From contig OX597821.1 of the NCBI GenBank assembly GCA_951406725.2, forward strand, positions 50,592,001 through 50,656,000: DNA of 64,000 bases, in the 5' to 3' direction. Both the position numbers and the translations under genes were made by a program. Source of the DNA: Octopus vulgaris (lineage: Eukaryota). This document shows positions 21,761 through 60,410 of this stretch, piece by piece. Under the pieces are notes generated by a model that was given only the letters and a program-made list of their open reading frames with translations, ran no database searches and was not told the DNA's origin. Position 1 is the stretch's first letter, and every line of letters begins with the position of its first letter.

Positions 21761-22983
21761 TTGGGTCATCTCATAAGTAATGCGGTATTTTTACACTTCT
21801 TTTATTTTTCAAAATTAAGTTCTTGCTTAATCTTAAATATACTCTCCTTCATTTTCTGAAATGCTCTTTTATCTATCTGGTATTCTTGCAAGGCCCCTCT
21901 TTCAAAATTCACTTGTCCGTGACGAAAAATACTCCTCCAGAACTGTTCTGAACTCGACTACAGAATTCAAATTGTTTCCGTTCAAATAATTTTAAAGACT
22001 GCGGAATAAATGATAATCAGACGTGGCAATGTCCGGCGAATATGGTGTGTGGGGCATCGTTTCCCATTCAAATTGCTCCAGCCTTTGAAATGTCTTCTTC
22101 ACTGCATGTGACCAAGCATTATCCTGATGGAAGAACACCTTTCGTCTTGAAACCAAAGATGGTCGTTTTTCTTTTATCCCTGACACAAGGCGCTCAAACT
22201 GCTCGCAGTAGATCTCCTTTGTTATCGTTTGGCTTGGGCTTAAAACTTCATAGTGGACTAAAACTTTCATATCCCACCAAACAGACAACAACACCTTACA
22301 TGGGTGAAGACCTTCTTTAGCCTGGAGTGCCGGTGTTTCTCCTTTCCCTATCCATTGTCTTCAGTGCTTGACATTTTTATAGAGAACCCATTCCTCGCCA
22401 CCGGTCACTATTTTGGTCCCAAAAGTTTCATTTGTGAGAGGTGACAGCACATTTACTCTCCGCACTCGATTAAACTCGGAAAGTTTGTGAAGAACTCATT
22501 GACCCAATTTGCTGACTTTTCCGATGGCTCGCCAATGTCGATGAATAGTTGAATGACCAAAACCAAGCTTCAGCTAGTTCCTCAACAATTACGATGGGAT
22601 TTTACTCCACCAAGGTTTGCAGGACGTCTTCGTCGAGCTCTACAGATCTTGAAGGATAAGACCCTTCTTCTAGGCTGTAGTTTCCGGCTCGGAATTTCTG
22701 AAACCACCGTTGGCACTGGCTTATGCCTATTCTCCGATCCCCATAAGCTGCATTAATAGTCCTCGCACTTTCCGTTCAGCAAAATATGCTGAATATTCTC
22801 CTTTGTAATTTCCATTATAGCTTTGGAAAAATAACTATTAAAATCGAATTGCACTCTTCAAAAACTTGCACTAAGAATAAGGAGAAAGTAAATCCATTTT
22901 CTGCTTTTGTAGCAAGTTAATGCAGGTAGTTTATCCGGCTCCATCTCCGAAAAGAAATCTGCATTATTTATGAGATGAACCAA
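21761..22983 (-). mobile_element. Decayed mariner transposon with TIRs and TA flanks
   Basis: ORF 21992..22294 has FHQDNAWSH and PYSPDIATSDYHLF; TIRs ttgggtcatctcataagtaatgc / gcattatttatgagatgaaccaa, both flanked by TA. Confidence 0.9.
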
Positions 22984-29140: not shown

Positions 29141-29227
<87 letters not shown>

Positions 29228-29229
<2 letters not shown>

Positions 29230-29705
29230 CAGTTATCGCCAAGCTAATATAGCAGTCCATAAATATAAGACTAAAGCTGCCGTTGATTAGCTCCAAGAGG
29301 CCATCGCCTCTAGCTAATATGTCACACGAACCTGTATCCTTCGAACAGGGGAGGTCAGCCGCTTCCCCTTGCTGGTCAGATATCTGCAGACATGTTTCAG
29401 GATATTTGTCCTTGCAGAGTAACCAGACCCACCAGGCGTCGCTGCCGACCGTCTGATCGAAGGATTATTTACAATTTCAATGGAATACATCCATTGGTTT
29501 TCAAAAATTGAAATATTAAAATTTCTAAGTCTCTCTAAAGGAGACTACAGCAGCGGTATGACACACAGGTTCGTGTGTCATATAGTTAGCTAGAGGTGAT
29601 GGCCTTTTGGAGCTAATCAACGGCAGCTTTAGTCTTATATTTACGGACTGCCATATTAGCTTGCGATAATTGTTAATTTCCAGTACCGCTGCCGTAGTCT
29701 CCTTT
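29228..29705 (-). mobile_element. Retrozyme-like element (same family as 59579-60081) with inverted partial copy; HHR core deleted
   Basis: Reverse of 29228-29558 aligns by eye with ~59725-60080; 29565-29674 is an inverted repeat of 29228-29335. Confidence 0.7.
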
Positions 29706-29821
29706 ATATATATTTTAATATATATATATATATAACATACACTACTTTATTTTGAGATTGCTAGTGTTAACAATACTCGCAAATAAAATACAGACTGGAG
29801 TTGTAGTGCTCTAAGTGAGTT

Positions 29822-30756
29822 ATATTCCACTTATTAATTTCAATAGATGCAATGCAAGCGGAAACTAGAGGAACATCATTAAAAAACAATACTCGAAAAT
29901 GAAATACATACATACATTCTTCCAGATTCACAAAACGGATATATAAATTCCAAATATATAAATATATAAATATTTATAAATAGATAAATATCGATGTGAT
30001 ACATAAAACAGTGAATTTACATTGGTGTAATTAACAATTTGGGAAGATAAAACATTAATAGGACGTACTAAAATCCCACGAAAATAATACAAAAATTAAA
30101 AAATTTAAAGTTCCATCTATGGACCTTTTCAGAGACGTGCCAAGTAATATGATATATTTCATATTTTGAAAACTGACACTCCCTCAACAGGATGTTTTCA
30201 CACACAATATAGAGAAAACAAATACAGAAATACTATTATGCAATTACATACCAGCCACCTGTGAGCTGGTATGTTATTGTGAGTTTTAAAAATATGAAAT
30301 ATATTATATTACTTGGCACGCCTCTGAAACGGCCCATAGATGAAACTTTAAAGTTTCTAATAGTTTCTAGGCCGATGAAGGACAATGATCCTGAAACACG
30401 GTGTCCCTAGATGCAGTTCCGGCGGTTGGGGGTGTTTGTCTCCCCTTCGTATACAACCATTCAATAGTTATATTATTTTCGTGGAATTTTAGTACATCCT
30501 TTTAATGTTTTATAATCCCAAATTGTTAATTACACTAATATATTATGACTTTTAAATGTAAATTTACTGTGTTTTATGTATCACATCGATATTTATCTAT
30601 TTATATATATTTTTATATTTATATATTTGGAATTTATATATCCGTTTTGTAAATATAGAAGAATGTATGTTATGTATTTGATTTTCGAATGTTTTTTAAT
30701 GATGTTCCTCTAGTTTCCGCTTGCATTGCCACCATTGAAATTAATAAGTGGTATAT
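29822..30756. mobile_element. Foldback/MITE element with ~355-bp inverted arms
   Basis: ccacttattaatttcaat...gaaaactgacac (29827-30178) is the reverse complement of ~30277-30751 apart from an insert. Confidence 0.8.
30366..30411 (+). ncRNA. Type I hammerhead ribozyme (core U4C) at the 5' end of a 97-nt TSD-flanked insert
   Basis: tctagg CCGATGA agga-caatga-tcct GAAA cac-g-gtg TC cctaga. Confidence 0.75.
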
Positions 30757-30842
30757 ATATTAATGCAGACACACCCATATATACATACATACATATATGA
30801 TATATACATATGTATATATACGTACACATATATATACATATA

Positions 30843-31699: not shown

Positions 31700-33182
31700 A
31701 AGCGAGAAGAACTGGAACGAGATAACGAGTAGGGTGGTCACTCTCGCCCGGCAATGGGCCGAGAGGAAACTGTCCCTAAAAGGTCGGGCGGAGGTGGCGA
31801 ACACGTACATCGCGTCCATCATCTACTACCGCCTGACCGTCGTACCTTGTCCCGACCCTACCATCACCAAACTAGAACGCATTCTCTTCCTCTTCTTGTG
31901 GAAAGGATGCGTCCCGATGGTCAGGCGATCCATTTGCTGTCAACATCCGTAAAAAGGAGGGCTGGGCATGCCGTGGTTGATGATGCGCAGACACGCGCTG
32001 AGACTGCGACATCTCCGGCTCTATGTAGACGACGGTGAACAGGTGTGGTCGCATTCCCGCAGGTCGTCTCCATGATCGAACTGCAGTCGTGGATCAAAAA
32101 GAGGCCGAGGAAGGGCGAATGGCACCGCGAGTGTCGCGTTGCTCTTAAGCAACTCTGCCGTCCCGGGTCGACCTTGAGTGACTTCAACACAACCAAAGCA
32201 TTCTATAGGGGATTAGTGGAGGGGAGGTACGACGACGATCTTGGGGCGAACCTGGGCGTCGACGAGGAATACCTGACCTGCCTGTTTGAAACGACTTTTG
32301 GGCCGGGACCTATGGACAACTTCCAGAGATCCCTGGCCTGGCAGTGCTACCGAGAAGCGCTACCCGTTCGGGATAAGCTCTATAGGCATGGCTCGAGAAA
32401 CACGGGGCCGACCTGCCCGAGATGTGGTCAGAGCGACGAAACCGTTCTGCACGCACTCGTGCAGTGTCCAACAATCTCCGACCTGTGGGCATATGTTGAA
32501 CGACAGCTGTCACGTGTGGGACGTGTCGGTTTATCAGCCGAGTCTATCGTTAATGTCGTCATGCCTCCTTCCTTCAAACGGGAAGGAAGAGCTATTTTTA
32601 TCAAACTTGTGGCTATGGCGAAAAAATGTATCTGGTGGACACGCCTAAAAGGATTAGAGACAAACACTTTCCTCTCTGGTCAATCTCTCATCAACTTCTT
32701 CAAGTATCACTTGAAGAGGAAAGTGAGAGTAGAGAGGCAAGTTTTATCTAGTGAATGTTTTTAAAAAAGATGGGTGAATGTAGCAAGGATGGCACGTATG
32801 AATGACGAAGCCACCTTGACTATGATCCTATGAACCGTAAAAATTAATACAGAGAGTTGCTTATTTGTAAAAAAAATAACATGTGACTTCATTGACCGAG
32901 GTTACCGTGGTCTTTTCCGTAGGCTTTTCTTTCCACGGGTAAACCTCACCTGTTCTCCCCTTTACACTTTATATTGACATTTCTGTGATAGCGATCCCTA
33001 TTGATCGATTTTTTTTCCTTTTCCTTTTATTTTCTATCCCACCCCCTTTTTTTGTCCTCTTTCTTTCCTTTTACGATCCCTTTTGATCGAAAACCAAAAC
33101 CCCTTTTTTTACTTCCCAATGAAAAGCTCTACCTTGTAATTTGTCCTGTCTGTGTGCAGCCCTGTGTGGCTAATAAAGAAAC
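31699..33182 (+). mobile_element. Tx1/L1-like LINE ORF2 3' end (zf-RVT-like CCHC) plus 3' UTR, frameshifted
   Basis: LSLKGRAEVANTYIASIIYY, GGLGMP, WQCYREALPVRDKL and CPRCGQSDETVLHALVQC; ends aataaagaaac; flanked by (ATCT)n. Confidence 0.85.
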
Positions 33183-33183
33183 A

Positions 33184-33258
<75 letters not shown>

Positions 33259-33269
33259 TTATCTATCTA

Positions 33270-34415
33270 CCGCTAGTGTCGCGTTGCTCTCAAGCAACTC
33301 TGCCGTCCTGGGTCAACCTTGAGTGACTCCATCACAACCAAAGCATTCTATAGGGGATTAGTGGAGAGGAGGTACGACGACGAGCTCGGGGCGAACCTGG
33401 ACGTCGACGAGGAATACCTGACCCGCCTGTTCGGGACGACTTTCGGGCCAGGGCCCATGGACAACTTCCAGAGATCTCTGGCCTGGCAGTGCTACCGAGA
33501 AGCGCTACCCGTTCGGGATAAGCTCTACAGACACGGCTCGAGAAACACGGGGCCGACCTGCCCGAGATGCGGTCAGAGCGACGAAACCGTTCTGCACGCA
33601 CTCGTGCAGTGTCCAACAATTTCCGACCTGTGGGCTTATGTCGAACAACAGCTGTCACGTGTAGGACGAGTCGGTTTATTAGCTGAGTCTATCGTCAATA
33701 TTGTCACGCCTCCTTCCTTCAAACGGGAAGGAAGAGCTATTTTCATCATCCTTGTGGCTATGGCGAAAGAATGTATCTGGTGGACGCGTCTGAAAGGATT
33801 AGAGACAAACACTTTCCTCTCTGGTCAATCATCTCATCAACTTCTTCAAGTACCACTTGAAAAGGAAAGTGAGAGTAGAGAGGCAAGTTTTGTCTAGCGA
33901 ACGTTTTAAAAAAAGATGGGTGAATGTAGCAAGGATGGCACGTATGAATGACGAAGCCACCTTGAGCATAATCCTATGAACCCAGAAATTGAAAACAGAG
34001 GGTTACCCACTTGCAAACAAATGTGGTAACATATAACAATATTGACCAAGGTTACCGTGGTCTTTTTCGTAGACTTTTCTTACCACGGATAAACCTTACT
34101 TGCTTTCCCCTTTACACCATACATCATGACACTGTGATACACGATCCCTATTGATCGTTTTTTTCCTCTCCCCTTTTTTTCCTCTTTTTTCTTCTTTTTT
34201 TCATTTTTCTTTTCTTTTTTTCCCTTTTTTCTTTTTTCTTTTCCTTTTTTCTTTTTTTCTTTTCCTTTTTTTCTTTTTTTGTTTGCTCTTTTTTCCCTTG
34301 TACGATCCCTTTTGAAGGAAAACCTACGCCACCTTTTTTTTTCTCCCCCAAAAGAAAAGCTCTACCTTGTAACTTGTCCCATCTGTGTGCAGTCCTGTGT
34401 GGCCAATAAAGAAAC
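33270..34415 (+). mobile_element. Second, more 5'-truncated copy of the same Tx1-like LINE
   Basis: ORF 33319..33897 closely matches 32045..32764; ends aataaagaaac then (TATC)n. Confidence 0.85.
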
Positions 34416-41899: not shown

Positions 41900-43320
41900 A
41901 GTTTGGTGGCTTACATCGCGGATGTAGATGGTTGTGGATCATCATCATCAACCACTGACTCTGGCTGTTTTTGTTGTTCGATGTGCTTAAAAAAAACGGC
42001 TGAGAGTTCCTTGAACTGTCTACTGTCTTATTTTCCCCAAGGATTACATTATAAGGAGCAAAATCTTAGTGACAAACCATCGTAATCTTGGAGAAGCATT
42101 GAACATTTGGATCCATATCCTCGAACATAGAAAATCCTTTTTCGATATATGCAAATGCTTGCTGCATTTTCTTAATGGCAAAATGACGTGACTCAGGTTC
42201 AACTTCCTCTTCTTCTTTATTTTGCTGTTCGTGAAGCTCTATCAAATCCTTGTTCGTCAGGAGCTGCTTGTCTTTTTCAAATAAATCTGTGAAATCTTCC
42301 TTCTCCAAATCCATTCCCAGTTCTTTGCTTGTAGTCACCAACGTTTTGTTGATGATAACATTATCAAACCCCTTAAAATCATTCACGAATTGCGGGCAAA
42401 TCTTCTTCCATACACCATTCATAACCGTGCTCTGTACATCAGTCTAAGCCGCTGCTATGCTCTGTCAGCCTTGTAGATATCGTATCTCTTCCAAAGGTCA
42501 CGAAGTGTGATGAACTCCTCAAGATCGGTTGTAGCTATTGCTTGCCGCAGTGTATGCTTCATATAGTAACGCTTGAAGATAGAAATTATTCCCTGATCCA
42601 TTGGCTGCAGAAGAGTCATGGTGTTCGGAGGGAAGTATTCGATGGTAACGTTGGGGCCAAAATCTACGATGTTTTGCGGGTGACCAGGAGCATTATCTAA
42701 GATAAGTAAAACCTTAAAAGAAATTCCCTTCTTAAAGCACTTCTCTGCTGCTGGGATAAAATGATTGAAGAACCAGTCTTCAAAAATAACAACAATAACC
42801 CATGCTTTTGAATTAGCCATCTATATAACAGGGAGAGATGCCTTGGGTATGTTCTTCAGGGTACGGGGGTTGTGTGCTTGATACACAAGCGATGTCTTTA
42901 ACTTAAAAACTCCTGCACAGTTACCTCGCAACATAATGGTCACACGTTCTTTTGAGACCTTGTATCCTGAAGTACTTTTCTCCTCCTTGGAAATGAATGA
43001 ACGGTCTGGCAATTTTTTCCAATGCAGTTTAGTTTCGTCTACGCCAAAAATCTGTTCGGAAAGAAACCCATTTTCTTCGATGATTTTCTTTTATGTATTA
43101 GGAAATTACGCTGCAGTTTGTTCATCAGTTGAGGTATTTACACCTTGCTTCTTAATGGAGTGATAACGTCTTCGCTCCTTAAATCTCATGAACCACCCCT
43201 GATTTGCCTTGAACTCTACATATTTCTAATCTGGATGTTTTTTCTTCAGGTCCTCAAAGACAACGCTTTCTCTTGAATGATTTCTTGACTAATAGCAACA
43301 CGCTGACGATATAACCTAAC
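41900..43320 (-). mobile_element. pogo/Tigger-like DDE transposase pseudogene
   Basis: MPDRSFISKEEK, KERVTIML, KVLLILDNAPGHP and PPNTMTLLQPMDQGII in split ORFs 42066-43012. Confidence 0.9.
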
Positions 43321-50586: not shown

Positions 50587-51113
50587 AAAAACGGGAAACC
50601 TATAATATATTTTTTTTCTCACAACGCGGACAACAGTTCAAATCTCACCCACGCTAGGGGTGGATGCCACAATATAGCCTACAGCGGCTAAAATTTAATT
50701 TTTCACGCAATAATGAATTGATTAGCCCCCCCAAAACGGGAAACCTATAATATTTTTTTTTTCTCACAACGAGGACAACAGTTCAAATCTCGCCCACGCT
50801 AGGGGTGGATGCCACAATATAGCCTACAGCGACTAAAATTTAATTTTTCACGCAATAATGAATTGATTAGCCCCCCAAAACGGGAAACCTATATTTTTTT
50901 CTCACAACGAGGACAACAGTTCAAATCTCGCCCACGCTAGGGGTGGATGCCACAATAAAGCCTACAGCGGCTAAAATTTAATTTTTCACGCAATAATGAA
51001 TTGATTAGCCCCCAAAACGGGAAAGCTATAATATTTTTTCCCTATTAATGAGGATAACAGTTCAAACCCCACCTCCTAGGGTGTGGGGCACGACAATAAA
51101 GCCTACAACGGCT
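50587..51113. repeat. Tandem repeat, ~137-145-bp unit, ~3.7 copies
   Basis: acgggaaa at 50591, 50736, 50880 and 51017. Confidence 0.95.
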
Positions 51114-51749: not shown

Positions 51750-51751
<2 letters not shown>

Positions 51752-53125
51752 GAAACGATTCCTGGACGATTGTTTTATACTCTGGAATGAAAACACAGAT
51801 AAACTCCTAAAATTCAAAAACCTATTGAACAGCATCAACCCAAATATACAGTTCACAATGGAATACAACCAAAAGGAGCTTCCATTCTTAGATATACTAA
51901 TTAAAAAATTAACCTTAAAATAGAAACAGACATTTTTTACAAAGCCACAGACGCTAAACAATACCTACTTTTTGATTCATGCCACCCAAGACACACTAAA
52001 ACAAACATCCCTTTCAACCTTGCAAGAAGGATATGCACAATAGTGTCAGAACAAAATACCAGGAACTTTAGACTACAAGAACTCAAAAACACCCTAATTG
52101 ACAGACACTACCCAGCTCAACTCATAGAGGATGGGATCAGACGTGCAACAGAAATCAAGATAGAAACTTTGAGAAAAGTCCAACACAACAACACACCTTC
52201 CCCGAAAATACTGCCTTACATTTCCACAGACAACCCCAGAAACAAAGAAGCCTTCACCATCATCACCCAGAATTTACCAATACTTCATAAGGACCCCAAA
52301 TTAAAGGAAATTCTAAACATACATAAAATCATTAAAAGCTACAAACAACCTAAATCACTTAAAAAGATTCTCACAAAGGCAAAATTGTTTTCTGAAATTA
52401 CGGATGCAAAAGTAAAAAAATGTGGTAGACCAAACTGCGCAACATGCCCAAACCTTCTAGAAGGATCAGAATTCCTCTTCAAAGAGGGACAAAAATTCAA
52501 GATCAAATCTAATTTTACTTGTGCTTCTGAAAACATAATTTATGTCATAAGATGCTCGGGCTGCCACCAAAACTACGTGGGGTCCACGGGGCTATCACTC
52601 AGACGTAGATGATGACACTGCATCGACAACAGATTGCATTCCCAGAATACAGAATGATACCCTTTAGTGAGCATATTGAGAAATGCGCAAAGCATCTACT
52701 ACCACAATTTTTAATCTTTCCATTTTATCAATGTGCTATTGGAACACCAACACAAATTAGACTAAACAAGGAAACATTCTTCATTGAAAAATATAAGCCC
52801 AAACTTAACCACTCTAACATTCTTATACAGAGAAACTCACCCCATTAAATAAAAGGGACAAGAAATATAACGCGATTATCTCCCTTACACCGGAAGAAAT
52901 CACTTATTACCTCCCCTTACCTGGAACACTTCTTTACACTTCATAACGAAGACATAACACGATGTTTTGAGAAATTTGAAACGTTAACACGAAACCGGTA
53001 ATTTCTTCAAAAACTATGTCACTGTATGAAAAAATTTTATAACATTCTTCTGACATAATGACTCAAATATATTTTTTAACCTTTTAAAACAAGCCTTCTG
53101 TAGTTTTTTCACTTTTTACTATTTT
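51750..53125 (+). mobile_element. Penelope-like element fragment (RT C-terminus + GIY-YIG endonuclease), 5'-truncated and frameshifted
   Basis: From 51750 WKRFLDDCFILW...IQFTME...LPFLD; SCHPRHTK; linker CGRPNCATC; NIIYVIRCSGCHQNYVGST. Confidence 0.9.
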
Positions 53126-53126
53126 C

Positions 53127-53195
<69 letters not shown>

Positions 53196-59578: not shown

Positions 59579-60081
59579 CTTGTTCGAAGGTTATAATGGA
59601 TACAGATCGTGTATCAATAGCTATCTTGATGGCGGTGGCCTCATGGAGCTGACCAGCGGCAGCGATTATTCTTATATCTATAAGAATGCCATATTAATAT
59701 GGCGATAACAATTAATTTCCAGTAAACGCTGCCGTAATCTCTTTTATAGAGACTTAGTAATTTTAATATTTCTATTATTGAAAACAAGTGGATGTATTCC
59801 ACTGAAACTAGGTAAATAGAAACCTTCGAACAGAGACGTCAGTGGCGACACCTGCGGGTCTGACTGCGCTACATTGACAAGGGGCAATACCCCGAAACGC
59901 GTCTGTAGCTGTCGGACTGGCAGTGTGAAGCGGCTGACCTCCCTTGTTCGAAGGTTATAATGGATACAGAACGTGTATCAATAGCTATCTTGATGGCGGT
60001 GGCCTCATGGAGCTGACAAGCGGCAGCGATTATTCTTATATCTATAAGAATACCATATTAATATGGCGATAACAATTAATT
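59579..60081 (+). mobile_element. Retrozyme-like 1.4-mer of a 364-nt non-coding unit
   Basis: Direct repeat 59579-59717 / 59943-60081; contains the HHR at 59868-59909. Confidence 0.75.
59868..59909 (+). ncRNA. Type I hammerhead ribozyme, U3-A8 core variant
   Basis: gctaca TTGACAA gggg-caata-cccc GAAA c-gc-g TC tgtagc. Confidence 0.8.
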
Positions 60082-60152
60082 ATGTAAATATATATGTATG
60101 TATATATATATGTATGTATGGATGTGTATATATATATATGTACGTATGTATG

Positions 60153-60198
<46 letters not shown>

Positions 60199-60202
<4 letters not shown>

Positions 60203-60410
60203 ATTTTATAGAAGGAGCTTCTACAGGACTAGAACTGTTTCATTCAAAGAAATCATCAGAAAGCTCATGAGCTCATGAGCTTCCTGCTGATTTCTTTTGA
60301 ATGAAACAGTTCTAGTCCTGTAGAACTCCTTCTATAAAATAAATTAATTTACTCTGCTATGTATTGAGTACCTTATTTACTGTGGTTAACCCCGACTCAA
60401 CCCGGGACCT
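60199..60410. mobile_element. Inverted pair of the HHR-bearing pLTR-like repeat (family of 15538-15680)
   Basis: Palindrome centred on agctcatgagctcatgagct (60262-60281); HHR folds at 60216-60265 (-) and 60278-60327 (+). Confidence 0.75.

Follow-up and report, generated by a model that had tools for sequence, protein, structure and literature searches.

At positions 29227-29558 of the Octopus vulgaris stretch analysed here (64,000 nt, hereafter the window), the minus strand carries both helices I and II of a hammerhead ribozyme, the GAAA, the UH cleavage site and helix III. The catalytic core strand is absent. The stems differ by compensatory changes from those of a related copy in the window, here called copy A. 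How can the pairing be kept in an RNA that has lost its core? The answer for which we argue, and which we hold to be very probable, is that the locus is a single, dead insertion belonging to a ~360-nt non-coding repeat family, very abundant and of the non-LTR-retrozyme type. Its stems are likely inherited, and its core was likely lost later, in this copy alone. The window is eukaryotic, microsatellite-rich DNA.

The Unit and Its Missing Core

The sequence-only reading placed a set of hammerhead motifs on the minus strand at about 29383-29418, and all of them are found there. The parts of the unit are as follows.

29227..29558, minus: retrozyme unit, a direct and nearly full monomer with 74% identity to 59727-60083
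29479..29495, minus: outer hairpin, with a G-C to A-U switch at 29494/29480 that is specific to the lineage of this copy
29413..29429, minus: hammerhead helix I, 5' strand, with outer 8 pairs, UAC bulge (29421-29419) and inner 6 pairs
29418-29413, minus: inner strand of helix I, tctgca, which directly abuts helix II
29412..29413, minus: site where the 7-nt core strand (positions 3-9) is lacking; copy A has TTGACAA at the equivalent point
29399..29412, minus: helix II, 4 pairs, agga (29412-29409) with tcct (29402-29399), loop CAAATA (CAAAUA in RNA)
29389..29398, minus: GAAA (29398-29395), palindrome acatgt (29395-29390) and the end of the UC cleavage triplet, C17 (29389)
29374..29388, minus: hammerhead helix I, 3' strand, including tgcaga (29388-29383)

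Helix I extends 8 pairs past the UAC/U internal loop and is longer than drawn earlier. Helix III consists of 1 pair and a palindromic loop (ACAUGU). The deletion of the catalytic core is readable as the absence of the 7-nt strand: 0 letters stand between tctgca and agga (29412/29413), neither a CUGAnGA nor a UUGAnAA core strand is present between helices I and II, and a descriptor scan for a hammerhead core at the unit found nothing. Because the defining core strand is absent, the copy is placed outside the hammerhead class, and judged by its letters it is catalytically dead.

The monomer is 13 nt short of one full turn of a ~360-nt unit, with GC 0.43, and lacks ~21 nt relative to its siblings by five small deletions. 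It contains no coding frame (longest ATG frame 58 aa). Its predicted linear fold is highly self-paired (z -5.2, 60 shuffles). A loose descriptor of a core-less hammerhead has 14 matches on both strands of the 64-kb window. This topology is therefore not rare in the window, and the significance of the locus comes from homology.

Homology with Copy A

Copy A and its ribozyme are located as follows.

59579..60083, plus: comparison copy A, a 364-nt unit and a 139-nt direct repeat (partial tandem)
59857-59918, plus: single hammerhead of copy A, with core TTGACAA (U3-A8) at 59874-59880 and a 5-nt loop 2

Pairwise alignment of the two loci gives 74% identity over 358 columns (E 9e-57), which bears out the proposal of a second retrozyme-like copy at 29227-29558. 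The local score is 315, against 23.5 +/- 3.6 (max 41) for 200 shuffles. The 64-kb window has no copy of the unit besides these two. Neither is an array of tandem copies with a hammerhead per unit; each has one hammerhead, core-less at 29227-29558. Both copies, at 29227 and at 60083, end near the same AT-rich point, ~165 nt past the cleavage site. This common end suggests a fixed priming point.

The descriptor with U3-A8 has one match in the window, copy A, and the CUGAnGA descriptor has 0 matches in the 64 kb. The Rfam hammerhead models match neither copy at E <= 10, which is probably due to the U3-A8 core and the 1-pair helix III. Among the matches listed from a whole-window Rfam scan (150 of 519), all are microsatellite-driven and below the gathering score.

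The longest ATG frame of copy A is 21 aa. Its predicted circular fold has an energy of -139.3 kcal/mol (z -10.2, 60 shuffles). In the predicted lowest-energy fold of its monomer (-25.3 kcal/mol), the core would be paired with the cleavage site, and this fold is calculated to lie 7 kcal/mol below the active monomer fold. A monomer that hides its cleavage site in this way would fit dependence on dimers.

Covariation in the Stems

In total, 27 base pairs in six helices were compared by coordinate between copy A and the unit at 29227-29558. Seventeen pairs are unchanged. Seven change on both sides and are all still Watson-Crick, and three change on one side (two G-U exchanges and one broken pair). 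The permutation P for two-sided changes is 2e-4, or 8e-4 without helix III, values that are biased somewhat towards covariation by drawing the helices with both copies in view, while the hammerhead layout itself is fixed by the GAAA and the UC site.

The compensatory changes described by the sequence-only reading in the hammerhead helices and the outer hairpin are thus real, and one more double-changed pair, 29422/29381 in outer helix I, can be added to them. The change of the helix III palindrome from acgcgt to acatgt was also seen correctly, but it counts little for selection since it consists of two CpG transitions.

Sibling Contigs at the Core Point

Contigs of four public runs were aligned to the locus at 80% likeness. 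This yielded 7,623 contigs from three organisms: 3221 in X1 (organism A), 2876 in X2 (B), 1293 in X4 (C) and 233 in X10 (A). None of the runs that contain part of the stretch is registered as RNA; X10 is only guessed to be RNA and serves as a fourth sample, not as evidence of transcription. Part of the stretch is present in 20 of 21 listed runs, which cover five organisms and 12 studies. The summed contig depth peaks at about 1e6, against 35-70 for single contigs; it is not a copy number and is used only in the sense of "very abundant".

The counted depth collapses between 29409 and 29411, from 12,678 to 88 in X1, from 18,085 to 70.8 in X2, from 567 to 0 in X4 and from 148 to 0 in X10. In X4 and X10, the distances to the ends of sibling alignments, taken from both sides, give a break at 29413 for 11 of 12 cases and at 29414 for the other. 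Such an end reached from both sides indicates that the siblings carry other letters exactly there. Only 3 of the 7,623 contigs in the four runs are counted across 29411-29412.

Individual records are informative. Record 19 of X2 crosses the core point with 7 extra letters. Record 4 of X1 (on 29357-29471) has no gap, and its t and t at 29412 and 29411 give TTGACAA. Record 4 retains the core, but 7 nt of its helix II, between two caa repeats, are gone: the same hammerhead has been knocked out independently. Record 5 of X1, a single contig of depth 36.3, has 0 differing letters over 108 nt and 9 extra letters. All the X1 contigs counted at 29475 have a 1- or 2-letter insertion at 29472-29475 (783 + 119.8 = 902.8). 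Because these depths sum exactly, 1-2 of the extra letters of record 5 belong at 29472-29475 and 7-8 elsewhere. The core point is the only other insertion site seen in the range of record 5 among the 12 listed of 69 indel rows, and the 7-8 letters can be placed there.

Based on the break positions, the net lengths and the letters of one record, the siblings most likely keep the core. The basis is 12 of 69 indel rows, 24 of 553 loose ends and 32 of 7,804 pieces listed, from which the core of the majority is inferred, not read. Siblings with a core, for which a search had been proposed, were accordingly found: TTGACAA is read in copy A and in record 4, and the extra letters of record 19 and the break at 29413 agree with it. 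A core-less junction is possible in at most one of the 7,623 contigs, a count in which ~80% of X1 was read and records were filtered, so that a missing junction of this kind is no proof of absence.

Head-to-tail joints from 29558 to 29232 with 13 letters between them occur in sibling contigs of X1, X2 and X4, which sets the unit near 360 nt. Only short joints and no long arrays are seen among the siblings, whose short contigs cannot show arrays. The fraction of sibling contigs running on into unlike sequence is 0.01. Metagenome scans with the conserved stretch of the family and with the U3-A8 hammerhead motif gave 0 matches each. Viral relatives were considered and rejected, as the four loci share only a word of 17-19 letters, expected by chance.

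Deletions, Substitutions, and the Order of Events

The five deletions of the copy are the 7-nt core, three of 9, 2 and 1 nt at 29317-29338, and one of 2 nt at 29472. At 29317-29338, siblings are 11-12 letters longer in six of the seven spanning records listed. The exception is record 1 of X1, which falls 9 letters short over 29232-29367.

Outside the duplicated part, within 29338-29535, the copy has eight positions at which at least 80% of sibling depth shows another letter in each of the four runs. A ninth, 29475, differs from 77%, 68% and 32% of sibling depth in three runs. These shares come from the 40 listed of 99 rows, with lower shares inferred for the remaining rows. The count excludes the allele shares of 29232-29335 and 29563-29673, where a contig can align to either arm.

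Six of these nine substitutions form three G-C to A-U pair switches (29494/29480, 29422/29381, and 29409/29402). The simulated P for three switched Watson-Crick pairs is about 7e-6 (62 pairs, 70% transitions), and none of them is at a CpG. The other letter makes up 81-100% of sibling depth at every one of the six sites. The remaining three substitutions are pair-breaking (29432 and 29475) or in a loop (29509), as in decay. The three switches point to a minor source lineage under selection as RNA.

Record 5 of X1 has five of the six switch letters (it ends before 29494). The sharing of these letters indicates that the switches predate the core deletion. Since the siblings appear to keep the core at 29413, the covariation as a whole is likely older than the deletion, and was likely inherited from catalytically active ancestors. 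The sequence-only reading had implied that the stems are under selection without a core; the siblings, with alignments that break at 29413, point the other way. What seemed surprising at this locus dissolves, as the covariation likely came first and the core was lost later. For the core loss as a real recent deletion, we see about an even chance. Copies with a broken core have been described among the repeats of Schistosoma mansoni (PMC8490949, in the available text).

Anatomy of the Insertion

The insertion contains, besides the direct monomer, the following parts.

29141..29228, no strand: (TA)n run, 3' end of the insertion and target site
29557..29582, minus: inversion junction, an 11-pair fold-back hairpin (-14.1 kcal/mol) completed by the 4 letters 29562-29559
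29563..29704, plus: inverted, 5'-truncated partial copy at the 5' side of the element
29676..29704, plus: ~29-nt tail of the inverted arm, reaching beyond the point where the direct arm ends on its 3' side; the final 4 letters also belong to the AT-rich flank
29705..29734, no strand: AT-rich or (TA)n flank, 5' end of the insertion

The order on the strand of the element is AT-rich flank, inverted arm (29704-29563), junction, direct near-monomer (29558-29227), and (TA)n. The inverted copy proposed earlier is real, with 91% identity between 29565-29673 and 29229-29335 (6 mismatches and 2 gaps), but on the strand of the element it lies 5' of the unit instead of following it. Loose ends of siblings set the ends of the arms at 29563 and 29558 (24 of 553 loose ends listed). 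The hairpin at the junction suggests snap-back synthesis before a jump to the direct copy. As both flanks are (TA)n, a target duplication is unreadable.

Penelope-type insertions are described with an inverted arm, a 30-40-bp tail, partial tandems and a bias for microsatellites (Craig et al., bioRxiv 10.1101/2021.04.23.441226, in the available part). Here, the inverted 5'-truncated copy at the 5' end and the microsatellite target are present, and the tail of ~29 nt is at the lower edge of that range. The likeness to Penelope-type insertions that had been noticed from the arrangement of the two arms therefore extends to the tail and the (TA)n.

Other Repeats in the Window

A 5'-truncated, frameshifted Penelope-like element is found at 51751-53128 (plus) between (TA)n runs. 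It contains the C-terminal part of the reverse transcriptase (RT), a CxxC zinc-finger linker and the start of GIY-YIG. Its frame has 94 relatives with RT and GIY-YIG domains, and those named include oyster, mussel and octopus proteins. No hammerhead motif was found in its 3' region. It is the only such fragment in the window, and its role as partner of the unit finds no support: the two share no detectable 3' sequence, with scores within those of shuffles.

The neighbouring short repeats are presumably octopus-type SINEs. At 50588-51113 there are three to four tandem units of ~145 nt with an internal hairpin, about 90% identical and with no Rfam match. MITE-like inverted-repeat elements are seen at 60200-60350 and 30000-30600, the latter enclosed by an inverted pair, 29821-29938 and 30642-30757 (89%). 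LINE-type fragments with a zf-RVT domain occupy 3-530 and 32039-34157; the latter contains a direct duplication, 32124-33007 and 33269-34157 (89%). Transposase fragments lie at 21995-22360 (minus) and 42458-42820 (minus), with Pfam Transposase_1 and DDE_1.

Alternative Explanations

The deletion of the core may be absent from the animal itself. A consensus error of the assembly in a fold-back within a very high-copy repeat would leave the true hammerhead intact, and we regard this as a substantial possibility, though somewhat short of even. Record 5 of X1 is identical to the copy at every letter, yet is probably without two of its deletions. The direct arm has five deletions and 0 insertions against 9-16 substitutions, while repeats of the window average 52 gap openings per 564 mismatches (40 of 91 pairs, at least 85% identity, non-independent), a difference with P = 0.004-0.03. 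The insertion folds back at -147 kcal/mol (DNA parameters), and nanopore reads, if used for this window, may have failed there, as they are reported to lose bases in inverted duplicates (PMC7229812). Against such an error, the window is elsewhere not indel-rich. The 7- and 9-nt deletions are flanked by microhomologies of 1-2 nt, as in natural slippage, and similar deletions are found in other members of the family from public contigs (X1 records 1 and 4, X4 record 27). Also, X1 holds 0.46 of the sampled words, against 0.69 expected if the deletions were the only difference. The family reading is the same whether the deletion is real or an artefact. It is also possible to place the gap elsewhere, as MAFFT does, in which case AGGACAA would be a mutated core, helix II would have lost its 5' strand, and agga/tcct would pair by chance. 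Record 4 of X1 shows that deletion of this strand occurs in the family. However, the placement costs two transversions against one transition, the sibling alignments are continuous through 29412-29409 and end at 29413, and nothing but pairing with the a at 29409 accounts for the t at 29402, so that we consider this placement very improbable. The copy is dead under either placement.

A core-less sub-lineage might instead propagate as a parasite that supplies substrate only, pairing via ACAUGU with intact siblings and being cut in trans, with its stems under selection. Its substrate half is complete (GAAA, helix III palindrome, UC site and helix I), the three compensatory switches are rare in the family, and the extra letters of record 5 are known by count and not by sequence. 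If true, it would be a natural pseudo-ribozyme parasite on a ribozyme family and a direct test of trans-cleavage in vivo. We find it extremely unlikely: the single contig that can have a core-less junction has 9 extra letters, which fit the core and 2 nt, and the copy at 29227-29558 also has the pair-breaking changes at 29432 and 29475 and four other deletions. Another possibility is that the unit is the pseudo-LTR of an autonomous Penelope-like element, truncated at its 3' end. The anatomy of the insertion is that of Penelope-like elements, and retrozymes and pseudo-LTRs are related in Xenopus (bioRxiv 10.64898/2026.07.22.740005, in the available part). Against it, the siblings close head to tail at ~360 nt and hardly ever run into unlike sequence, the unit has no coding frame, and no RT and GIY-YIG frame was found in or beside it. 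Furthermore, the internal loop of helix I and the CAAAUA loop resemble the tertiary-contact layout of S. mansoni, which indicates a full-length type I hammerhead and not the minimal type of pseudo-LTRs. The pseudo-LTR origin is thus improbable. The preferred reading remains that of a dead insertion of a non-LTR-retrozyme-type repeat.

A Possible Cycle of the Family

Based on sequence, the family is very likely a non-LTR retrozyme with a full-length type I hammerhead, U3-A8 where seen. We propose that tandem copies of the family are transcribed, and that their type I hammerheads pair via the palindromic helix III and cut as dimers. A Penelope-like element, through its reverse transcriptase and GIY-YIG endonuclease, would then copy the resulting monomers or circles of ~360 nt and insert them at (TA)n sites. 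Selection at the RNA level in each round could fix compensatory pairs in sub-lineages. The copy at 29227-29558 would come from a minor sub-lineage with the three G-C to A-U switches, and its insertion would have landed as one monomer and an inverted arm. With a single hammerhead no unit-length RNA could be released, and the core would be free to go.

The core-less copy itself is ordinary, likely the product of decay or of an error in the assembly rather than a novel type of RNA. The family appears to be a very abundant retrozyme common to at least three organisms, likely a mollusc group. Rfam and the CUGAnGA descriptors miss it, and counts of retrozymes built on them would therefore overlook it as well. 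Mobilisation by Penelope-like enzymes, proposed in the literature but not shown directly there, is supported by the inverted arm, the tail and the (TA)n target of this single non-coding copy.

Comparison with Known Systems

The closest systems are the metazoan non-LTR retrozymes (Cervera and de la Pena 2020, PMC7229834), which include the 350-390-bp repeats of mussel and HHR_Amex1 of axolotl. As far as the available text of that study describes them, they share with the present family a non-coding unit of ~360 nt that is highly self-paired with GC <50%, one type I hammerhead per unit, a 1-pair helix III with a palindromic tetraloop, very high copy number and head-to-tail joints. Non-LTR retrozyme units are non-coding, 150-450 bp long and below 50% GC, and the present units, 364 nt in copy A and ~360 nt here, are within this definition. 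Efficient cutting of HHR_Amex1, which has a similarly weak palindromic helix III, needs a dimer. Unlike the retrozymes described there, the copy at 29227-29558 is core-less and consists of a monomer and an inverted arm, and the present family is known from sequence alone. The two readable cores of the family are U3-A8, whereas those retrozymes have C3-G8. No report of the family for octopus or cephalopods was seen in the titles and abstract starts searched; the supplements of PMC7229834 and PMC4209133 may list the animal group.

With the endonuclease-positive Penelope insertion units of Craig et al., as described in the available part of that preprint, the insertions share the inverted truncated copy at the 5' end, the partial tandem (copy A), the tail of ~30 nt and the microsatellite target. 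Unlike those elements, the unit is without an RT or GIY-YIG frame and without a sequence link to the one such element of the window. Animal retrozymes have been argued to be non-autonomous derivatives of Penelope in the available part of the preprint 10.64898/2026.07.22.740005.

The full-length hammerhead of S. mansoni (SM-alpha; PMC2632901, in the part available) has the same loop 2, CAAAUA, and an internal loop of helix I ending in UAC. The available texts report U3-A8 covariation in about 1,300 minimal hammerheads of S. mansoni (PMC4209133) and activity in vitro for U3-A8 in Cercyon variants (PMC3088659). Helix II of the family begins with A10.1-U11.1, where the pair usual in the accessible portion of PMC4209133 is G-C, and this counts against the preferred reading. 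Compared with the S. mansoni and Cercyon examples, U3-A8 is found here in a full-length hammerhead of a short repeat, with 1 pair in helix III and, in this branch, A10.1-U11.1.
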